From a virus (taxonomy: Duplodnaviria; Heunggongvirae; Uroviricota; Caudoviricetes), in IMG/VR virus record IMGVR_UViG_2695420514_000005: a stretch of 5,731 nucleotides of DNA. One strand, given 5' to 3'. The first letter of the stretch is position 1; each line of letters begins with the position of its first letter. Under the pieces are notes generated by a model. The model was given only the letters and a program-made list of their open reading frames with translations. It was not told the DNA's origin and searched no databases. Made by a program: the position numbers and the translations under genes. Positions 1,780 to 2,541 of the stretch are shown here, piece after piece.

Positions 1780-2541
1780 TCACTTTTCCGATACAACGCG
1801 ACTGGTGGAATCGACAATCTGTCGGACAATATCCCGGTGTTTATTCAGCTCCCGCAGTGCTGCGCAGACGCGCTCCCACTTCTGGACACGGTTTTTTGCC
1901 CGGCGCAGTTCGCGGTTTGCCAGATGCAGCGATGGTAAAGTCAGGTCATCGGCTCGCGTTTTGGTGAACGATGGCAACGACTGCACAATGTCCGCCACAG
2001 TTTCTGTTTTAATTTCTTCCTGTATTGCAGCTTCCGGCGCTGGTAACGCAACACCCGCTGGCTGAGGAAAGGCTTTACCATCAGTTTCCGTTACCAATGC
2101 AGCTTTCGGCTCTGCTGGTAAATTATCGTCCGGCATGCAGTAACGAAATTTACCGTTCTGATTTACGCGAATCAGGCGACCTTTGCTGATTGCCTGAGCC
2201 AGCGTTGAAGCCACTTTGCGTGATGTGGTACCGAACAACGTAGCCAGTTCATCCGCCGTTTGTGGTCCGCGTTGTTCAATCGTCGCGGTTAAATCGCACT
2301 CTGAGATTTTCGCTACTGTTGCTGTGGTGGTTTCTTCCGGCAGTTCTGCCTGCGCTGGCTGTTCCTGCTGAACGTTGTTATCAGCCACACGCCAGGTGTA
2401 CGCGCTTTTATCAACAAAACCAGCATTTTTCAGTTCCCATAGTTCGTTAAGCACTTCTTCACGACTGATATCAAGTCGCGCCGCAAGTTCTATGGATGTG
2501 GCTTTTCCCATTGCTTTCAGTGCGTCAAAAACAGTCTCCAT
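1780..2541 (-). CDS. Uncharacterised prophage protein, 253 aa, with two winged-helix-like segments separated by low-complexity linkers; sits in the position that ydaW occupies in Rac
   Basis: ATG at 2539-2541 with SD GGGAGA about 8 nt upstream, 22 nt after the DnaC-like stop. N-terminal [43 protein letters not shown] and internal [32 protein letters not shown] both resemble wHTH recognition modules. Q/E/T-rich and P/A-rich linkers separate them, and the C-terminus is basic and helical ([26 protein letters not shown]). The alternative start at 2592 would overlap the DnaC-like gene by 29 nt and has a weaker SD. Confidence 0.65.

Follow-up and report, generated by a model that had tools for sequence, protein, structure and literature searches.

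What does the gene that directly follows the helicase-loader gene of Rac-type prophages do, and what kind of protein does it encode? Here, we address this question for the gene at positions 1780-2541 (minus strand) of a 5,731-nucleotide stretch of DNA from a virus of the class Caudoviricetes (IMG/VR record IMGVR_UViG_2695420514_000005; the whole stretch is hereafter called the window). It comes from a Rac/Qin-type lambdoid prophage of Escherichia coli, of which it spans the immunity and replication region, and the closest complete E. coli genome matches 96% of the window at 99.5% identity. Judged by homology, the gene is an intact orthologue of ydaW of E. coli K-12 and a typical member of the DUF1627 or PHROG 630 family. 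We tentatively propose, at a probability of roughly 0.4, that YdaW acts in early lytic development as a tethering or adaptor protein that is directed at the host and dispensable. It is probably neither a helicase-loader cofactor nor a classical MarR repressor.

The protein matched the Pfam model DUF1627 (PF07789) with 308.4 bits against a cut-off of 28.1 (1.1e-92) along profile positions 1-155 of 155, and PHROG 630 with 8e-127 along positions 1-252 of 253. It is identical to YdaW of the K-12 Rac prophage (b1361) in 143 of 151 residues (95%) over amino acids 1-151. The upstream neighbor (2564-3310, minus strand) encodes a DnaC-like helicase loader of the YdaV type (NCBIfam PRK12377, 505 bits; Pfam IstB_IS21; PHROG 50), and the gap after the ydaV stop codon is 22 nucleotides in K-12 and in the window alike. 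The original prediction, which had described an uncharacterised double winged-helix protein encoded directly after a DnaC homologue, was right about this position, and its assignment to the ydaW slot is more than positional given the identity to the K-12 protein. It was also right that function is not assignable by homology, as the only clear homology is to DUF1627 and PHROG 630, both of unknown function.

The coding sequence at 1780-2541, which ends with a TGA stop codon at 1780-1782, is supported by its open reading frame (ORF), the Pfam and PHROG matches, the identity to the K-12 protein and the ratio of non-synonymous to synonymous substitution rates (dN/dS). In a mechanical ORF list the longest reading comprises 270 codons from an ATG at 2592. 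The true start, however, is ATG 2541, which yields the predicted 253 amino acids, because a Shine-Dalgarno-like GGGAG read from the sequence (2551-2555, minus strand) lies 9 nucleotides 5' of this ATG, the NCBI Prokaryotic Genome Annotation Pipeline chose the same codon, 22 nucleotides past the ydaV stop, in the 99.5% identical genome, and the residues MET(V/I) open all homologues at this position, even at 25% identity. The extension from the in-frame ATG 2592 (2542-2592, minus strand) overlaps the last 29 nucleotides of the loader gene, and its conservation among close relatives is due solely to its location within the loader coding sequence. Against 54 distinct close homologues, the pooled dN/dS was 0.19, with 0.08 for the first winged helix and 0.54 for the second linker. 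The gene is under purifying selection, which is strongest on the first winged helix and relaxed in the second linker.

The family is catalogued and very common, its function is uncharacterised, and its detection here is not a discovery. Narrow in range yet abundant, it comprises 183 cluster representatives at 50% identity in a collection of 1.84 billion proteins and 2,519 clusters at 90% identity. Of 5,426 complete E. coli genomes, 2,661 carry the gene, some of them as often as seven times. An identical protein is contained in the IMG/VR viral contig collection, and near-identical proteins, the closest at 93%, are publicly annotated as DUF1627. A Rac-type phage record labels its own copy 'ydaW: DUF1627 domain-containing protein', and the RefSeq annotation likewise reads DUF1627. 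Literature searches on DUF1627, ydaW and DUF977 returned no functional study, and nothing relevant was found on lygF. The label 'uncharacterised' given by the original prediction holds in this respect, but not as a claim of novelty. Deletion of ydaW lowers early biofilm formation (PMC3105296). Other mentions of DUF1627 concern a marker gene near the PasA/PasC small RNAs and a feature associated with hemolytic uremic syndrome strains. This particular copy is of little importance; the family, in turn, is among the commonest unexplained genes of Rac/Qin-type and Shiga toxin-converting prophages, and what the present analysis adds is family-level anatomy and context, not a new kind of system.

An AlphaFold2 monomer model, computed from a 56-sequence alignment of 22-68% identity, had a mean predicted local distance difference test score (pLDDT) of 81.9 over the 253 amino acids. 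It contains two winged helices of helix-helix-helix-strand-strand topology (amino acids 1-52 and 81-135, pLDDT above 95), which are bare three-helix/two-strand modules flanked by disordered linkers (amino acids 53-80 and 136-180). Winged helix 1 (amino acids 1-52; 2386-2541; this and all following modules on the minus strand) was modelled with a pLDDT of 95-98 and is the most conserved and most constrained module. It carries a conserved motif with invariant L34 and W50. Its net charge is slightly acidic (family mean -1.9), and its recognition helix is acidic. Linker 1 (amino acids 53-80; 2302-2385; pLDDT 54-73) is rich in Q/E/T and predicted to be disordered. Winged helix 2 (amino acids 81-136; 2134-2301; pLDDT 92-97) is basic, with a family mean charge of +3.8 and a recognition helix of basic S/T/R/K composition. 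A profile comparison with hhalign related it to winged helix 1 at 95% probability, and to judge by this match the two modules are paralogues, winged helix 2 having arisen by internal duplication.

Linker 2 (amino acids 137-180; 2002-2133; pLDDT ~53) is P/A/E-rich, disordered and tolerant of insertions and deletions. In the closest genome copy (locus L001, 13584-14273), 24 amino acids between two P(K/E)AA repeats are removed in frame, and this clean deletion indicates that linker 2 tolerates large length changes. Throughout the family both linkers are acidic, P/A/E/T-rich and variable in length, linker 1 measuring 16-52 residues and linker 2 14-61 residues. A short conserved peptide region follows (amino acids 181-204; 1930-2001), which was recognised by column conservation as (I/L)P.F ... 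DDL(I/V)(I/V)P(T/S), with P190 in 46 of 55 sequences, F192 in 32 of 54 and P203 in 49 of 56. Disordered sequence borders it, and two short helices were modelled at amino acids 182-193. The C-terminal module (amino acids 205-253; 1783-1929) is a basic amphipathic helix, modelled from residue 205 to 251 with a pLDDT of 92-95. Its net charge is +7 in the window protein and +6.2 on average in the family, its hydrophobic periodicity is 3.4-3.5 residues, and the exposed positions 213, 216 and 234 are K/R in 93-95% of the sequences. The helix is a probable coiled coil with a basic binding face, as far as the model and these patterns indicate. The Pfam DUF1627 model spans only amino acids 88-242 and omits winged helix 1, the most conserved module of the protein.

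These results bear out all structural statements of the original prediction. Both separate winged helix-turn-helix (wHTH) modules were recovered by AlphaFold2 and Foldseek, and the Q/E/T and P/A linkers and the basic helical tail agree with composition (P/A/E for linker 2) and with the tail charge. The wHTH fold is predicted, and homology to a characterised family with a known role was not detected. In Foldseek searches, single modules matched winged helices of MarR, ArsR, IclR and FeoC proteins at 1-2.5 Å root-mean-square deviation over 50-65 residues, while the pair matched tandem winged-helix proteins such as ScpB and ESCRT-II. Among PDB structures and viral models, however, the Foldseek matches were limited to generic wHTH or tandem winged-helix folds, with none for the C-terminal module. 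ScpB, ESCRT-II subunits and ADAR1, which head the Foldseek and PDB-profile matches, each have two winged helices per chain as in YdaW, with the ADAR1 pair also on a long flexible linker. In ScpB and ESCRT-II, in contrast, the winged helices pack together, the whole-chain template modelling score of about 0.2 indicates a generic fold only, and all three proteins are without the C-terminal module of YdaW. A search of PDB sequences with the single YdaW protein gave no significant match, and neither NCBIfam nor PADLOC provided an informative family. The profile of the C-terminal module matched the neck of DC-SIGNR in the PDB (E 0.048), which we rejected as a low-complexity coiled coil.

The number of winged helices varies among family members. 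Variants of 117-169 amino acids have one winged helix (P0141, P0151, P0154, P0155, P0190, P0226, P0270) and variants of 308-311 amino acids have three (P0182, P0255), and both kinds occupy the same slot after the replication genes (loci L258-L262). Winged helix 2 is present in zero to two copies, and winged helix 1 and the C-terminal module occur in every variant. The existence of variants with one to three winged helices thus defines a constant core of winged helix 1, short peptide and C-terminal helix. K-12 YdaW has the same two winged helices in the same slot as the window protein; its 186 amino acids, however, are truncated and rearranged after residue 151, so that linker 2, the short peptide and the C-terminal helix are missing. 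The family anatomy hence explains why the truncated K-12 protein is a poor proxy for intact YdaW. In four further proteins (P0125, P0126, P0127, P0140), N-terminal parts of replication or CII-like proteins are fused to the C-terminal two-thirds of DUF1627; such fusions probably reflect recombination, or chimeric assembly, between paralogous prophages of a single genome.

The genomic neighborhood was compared in ~180 loci, which represent 21 protein clusters at 80% identity, considering ORFs on the same strand only. In ~155 of the 175 loci having an upstream gene, ydaW directly followed the replication module. The upstream gene was DnaC-like in 118 loci, the initiator itself in 32 and lambda-P-like in at least four (confirmed by Pfam), and in other loci a DnaB-type helicase followed by a small ORF preceded ydaW. 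One and the same 80% YdaW cluster occurred with different loaders. The initiators were likewise unrelated, with a lambda-O-like C-terminal half in the window, DUF1376 in K-12 and HTH_36/DnaT types elsewhere; a seeming association with a single 'initiator family' was produced by single-linkage clustering and was rejected as an artefact, the initiators being heterogeneous. In three P2-like early operons RecE was located upstream and the replication gene was a GPA-type (P2 gene A-like) initiator; the copies there (loci L004-L006; about 6001-6768 in L004) are distant members with 25-28% identity. Another distant relative is located next to a Dam-like methyltransferase, in a conjugative element with type-IV secretion (L011, 3377-4165). 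The RecE-associated and conjugative-element copies show that the family is not confined to lambdoid replication modules. Close relatives of the window's loader are always accompanied by the gene: ydaW is carried by each of the 78 evaluable loci whose loader shares 95% identity or more with that of the window. No homologue, however, was found in Gifsy-1 or in the Klebsiella, Vibrio and Burkholderia phages, whose DnaC-type loaders are more distant. With DnaC-like, lambda-P-like, DnaB-type, initiator and RecE genes upstream, co-occurrence with one loader type is not strict.

Downstream, DUF977 followed in 83 loci (5 of the 21 clusters), a 74-amino-acid Cys-rich protein in 43 and a 90-amino-acid helix-turn-helix (HTH) protein in 13, and the remainder encoded Rrf2-like and other proteins. 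Co-variation with the 138-amino-acid DUF977 gene and the DUF551 gene, which had been suggested as a point to survey, is hence not general, as the downstream neighbor varies widely between prophages. ydaW thus always takes the final slot of the replication block, at the junction to the accessory region, but its partners vary. The 74-amino-acid gene (CPEC...CP..H; e.g., L131, 6660-6884) is found in many Citrobacter, Enterobacter and Klebsiella-type prophages and had no Pfam or PHROG match; its product looks like a small zinc-ribbon protein.

How could a protein of this anatomy act? In the proposed tethering or adaptor role, the C-terminal helix would form a coiled-coil dimer. Its exposed Arg/Lys face, together with the basic winged helix 2 where present, would hold YdaW on nucleic acid, going by charge and fold, and a partner would dock onto the invariant winged helix 1 and the short peptide. 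Because the position and the N-terminus of YdaW stay while initiator and loader types change, this partner is more likely to be a factor or structure that stays constant in the host than the replication proteins of the phage itself. That many related phages do without ydaW argues for an accessory, host-directed role. YdaW may in this way protect or tune the replicating phage genome, as suggested for its neighbor Ren. In a genome-wide screen, overexpressed K-12 ydaW was among several prophage genes that block the retron-Sen2 toxin RcaT (bioRxiv 10.1101/2020.06.22.160242; restated in PMC11951105). Two-hybrid interactions of Rex proteins with lambda O and Ren are also on record, and ren was suggested to be involved in replication (Thomason et al., bioRxiv 10.1101/2021.04.19.439022). 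The RcaT result and the Ren neighborhood agree weakly with a host-directed role.

Several points weigh against this proposal. Its mechanistic steps all derive from sequence and a monomer model. The RcaT result was obtained by overexpression of a truncated allele and could reflect an indirect effect. The fixed slot beside the replication genes could equally indicate a role in replication via a shared host replisome component, and the invariable presence of ydaW beside close YdaV relatives is compatible with linkage or with function. In addition, several family members score on MarR, HTH_20 and HTH_24 models.

The last point leads to the alternative hypothesis that YdaW is a classical sequence-specific regulator of MarR/ArsR type, whose winged helices would bind a phage or host operator during lytic growth. 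Catalogues of predicted transcription factors list K-12 YdaW as a MarR-type regulator of unknown target (PMC4797297, PMC9308461). Both modules gave weak but consistent matches to the HTH_Crp_2, TrmB, HTH_20, MarR and ArsR models, wHTH regulator models were matched in 12-21 of 56 family members, and Foldseek places the modules on MarR, ArsR and IclR regulators. As in MarR/ArsR factors, each module has the H-H-H-strand-strand fold, and the recognition helix of winged helix 2 is basic. No regulator model, however, reached its Pfam or NCBIfam cut-off (MarR 14.6 versus 24.6 bits, MarR_2 16.4 versus 27). The acidic recognition helix belongs to winged helix 1, the most conserved module, and the basic winged helix 2 is missing from natural short variants. 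Unlike MarR/ArsR factors, YdaW has disordered linkers between modules and a variable module number, and the flanking dimerisation helices of MarR-type proteins are absent from the AlphaFold2 model. Long acidic disordered linkers are, moreover, unusual for bacterial repressors, and the gene lies mid-operon with no adjoining promoter-like site or palindrome found. We therefore regard a classical regulator as doubtful.

A dedicated anti-defence protein, which would neutralise a host or prophage immunity system (for instance a retron toxin-antitoxin system or Rex-like exclusion) via the effector or a nucleic-acid component and thereby counter abortive infection, is conceivable at a similarly low level of confidence, and it overlaps with the tethering role that we favor. 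It is suggested by the identification of ydaW as a prophage-derived blocker of RcaT toxicity and by the location of the gene at the start of a variable accessory region, where it adjoins a Ren homologue in the window and lies near DNA methyltransferases elsewhere. Many phages that share the loader type do without the gene, it is also found in P2-like early operons and a conjugative element, and winged helix 2 of its product is weakly Ren-like (PHROG 142, 1.7e-5; hhalign, 62%). The screen, however, is a single result for which the searched literature contained no follow-up, and the C-terminal motif of Ren is absent from YdaW. PADLOC returned only wHTH noise, with a CARF-associated HTH as the best match (3.9e-4), and no significant match to a defence model. 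Very high prevalence, purifying selection and fixed position also differ from the rapid turnover usual for anti-defence cargo. In a more specific and rather unlikely form of this hypothesis, YdaW would be a widespread prophage counter-defence whose winged helices and coiled coil recognise an immune complex, such as a retron complex of multicopy single-stranded DNA, reverse transcriptase and toxin, or a toxin itself, and silence abortive infection. If true, it would explain the RcaT-blocker phenotype, why the gene adjoins a Ren homologue and why it does not depend on the kind of replication machinery present.

Next to ydaW, with its ATG 7 nucleotides after the ydaW stop codon, lies a gene for a 138-amino-acid DUF977 protein (1356-1772, minus strand; Pfam DUF977 6.5e-26; PHROG 142 'Ren-like' 1.3e-37). 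Lambda Ren is a full-length member of PHROG 142 (1.6e-41), and the DUF977 protein matched it in BLASTP (2e-8) with a full-length alignment and a common C-terminal ECRQS.AM.RVLA motif. On these alignments, the DUF977 gene is the true lambda ren homologue, and YdaW is an extra gene between loader and ren. The DUF977 protein has a ~40-residue insertion relative to Ren. BLASTP of YdaW against lambda Ren gave no match. In the comparison with PHROG 142, the similarity covered amino acids 85-135 of YdaW, with no stretch passing alone and no full-length membership, and in the hhalign comparison with the Ren family winged helix 1 reached 3%. A Ren paralogue was consequently rejected, given the lack of a direct BLAST match, the weak profile link and the missing Ren motif. 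Ren and YdaW are alike as early-right-operon proteins after the replication genes, Ren being small and having one winged helix; YdaW differs in its extra conserved N-terminal winged helix, its basic coiled-coil tail and the absence of ECRQS.AM.RVLA. The comparison with the position of lambda ren that had been drawn before thus stands for the neighborhood, but the ren homologue is the adjoining gene and not ydaW.

We consider it improbable that YdaW is a replication accessory factor that aids origin loading of host DnaB or replisome assembly with the phage initiator and loader, in loose similarity to a loading cofactor with two winged helices. The gene is the next after the replication module in nearly all loci with an upstream gene, is tightly spaced after the loader gene and is carried by every evaluable locus with a close YdaV relative, as would be expected for such a factor. 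Yet a single YdaW cluster is combined with DnaC-, lambda-P- or DnaB-type loaders or none, and with unrelated initiators. In the P2-like prophages it follows RecE with the GPA-type initiator several genes away, the Gifsy-1, Klebsiella, Vibrio and Burkholderia phages manage DnaC-type loaders with no homologue, and lambda has none either.

The Z-alpha domain contacts the backbone of Z-form nucleic acid with an Asn and a Tyr of helix 3 and a Pro-Pro-x-Trp wing, as seen in ADAR1 structures. A Z-alpha-like binder of left-handed or otherwise unusual nucleic acid, with tandem winged helices on a flexible linker as in ADAR1 or ZBP1, is very improbable and was rejected as an identity because these contact residues are not conserved: although the family profile ranked ADAR1 first among PDB sequences (E 1.3e-7 for the whole chain with Z-alpha and Z-beta), with ZBP1, PKZ and herpesvirus ORF112 Z-alpha among the top matches, and Foldseek listed Z-binding proteins on viral models, single-domain matches were weak (i-Evalue 0.03-0.09), Asn173 and Tyr177 are replaced by Ala/Ser and the Pro-Pro-x-Trp wing by G-K-F-R or K-G-V-T-W (in the HMMER alignment to ADAR1, N173/Y177 face an Ala/Ser consensus and PPLW faces kkfty), no Pfam z-alpha match appeared at E up to 0.1, and AspA, ArsR and MarR domains score equally.

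In the window, a cI-like repressor (5073-5480, plus strand) is followed on the minus strand by Cro (4768-5022), a YdaT/CII-like protein (4263-4784), an O-like initiator (3317-4336), the loader, ydaW and the DUF977 gene, and further on by the DUF551 gene (479-1135). On the coding strand, no promoter-like or terminator-like site was found around ydaW, no palindrome adjoins the gene, and positions 1780-2541 contain no repeats, promoters, terminators or Rfam families; the terminator-like matches (1820 and 2310) fall on the non-coding strand, and their number is within chance expectation. Because no such site was found on the coding strand and the spacing is tight on both sides, ydaW is predicted to be co-expressed with the replication genes once the prophage is induced, as part of the early-right (pR-type) lytic operon.

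The initiator has a mosaic composition. Residues 165-312 share 35% identity with the C-terminal half of lambda O (E 3e-26), the last 19 residues recur as a tail in K-12 YdaU and Gifsy-1 O and are weakly similar to the C-terminus of DnaT, and the N-terminal half is unrelated to lambda O. Inside this gene, at 3823-3938, five tandem 23-nucleotide iterons (consensus about CATCGNGNCATTTTGACCNGATG) are spaced by 23-24 nucleotides; by analogy to lambda O, they probably mark the phage replication origin.

At the other end of the window, a sok antitoxin RNA was found at 192-357 (minus strand; Rfam RF01794, 99.8 bits), with no hok reading frame after sok. Positions 3-206 (plus strand) encode the C-terminal end of an insertion sequence transposase with an integrase core domain (...YNSKRPHKALALMTPVEY...). 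The insertion sequence appears to have cut the hok/sok locus of the window; the closest genome has an intact hokD, and its match to the window ends at position 198.

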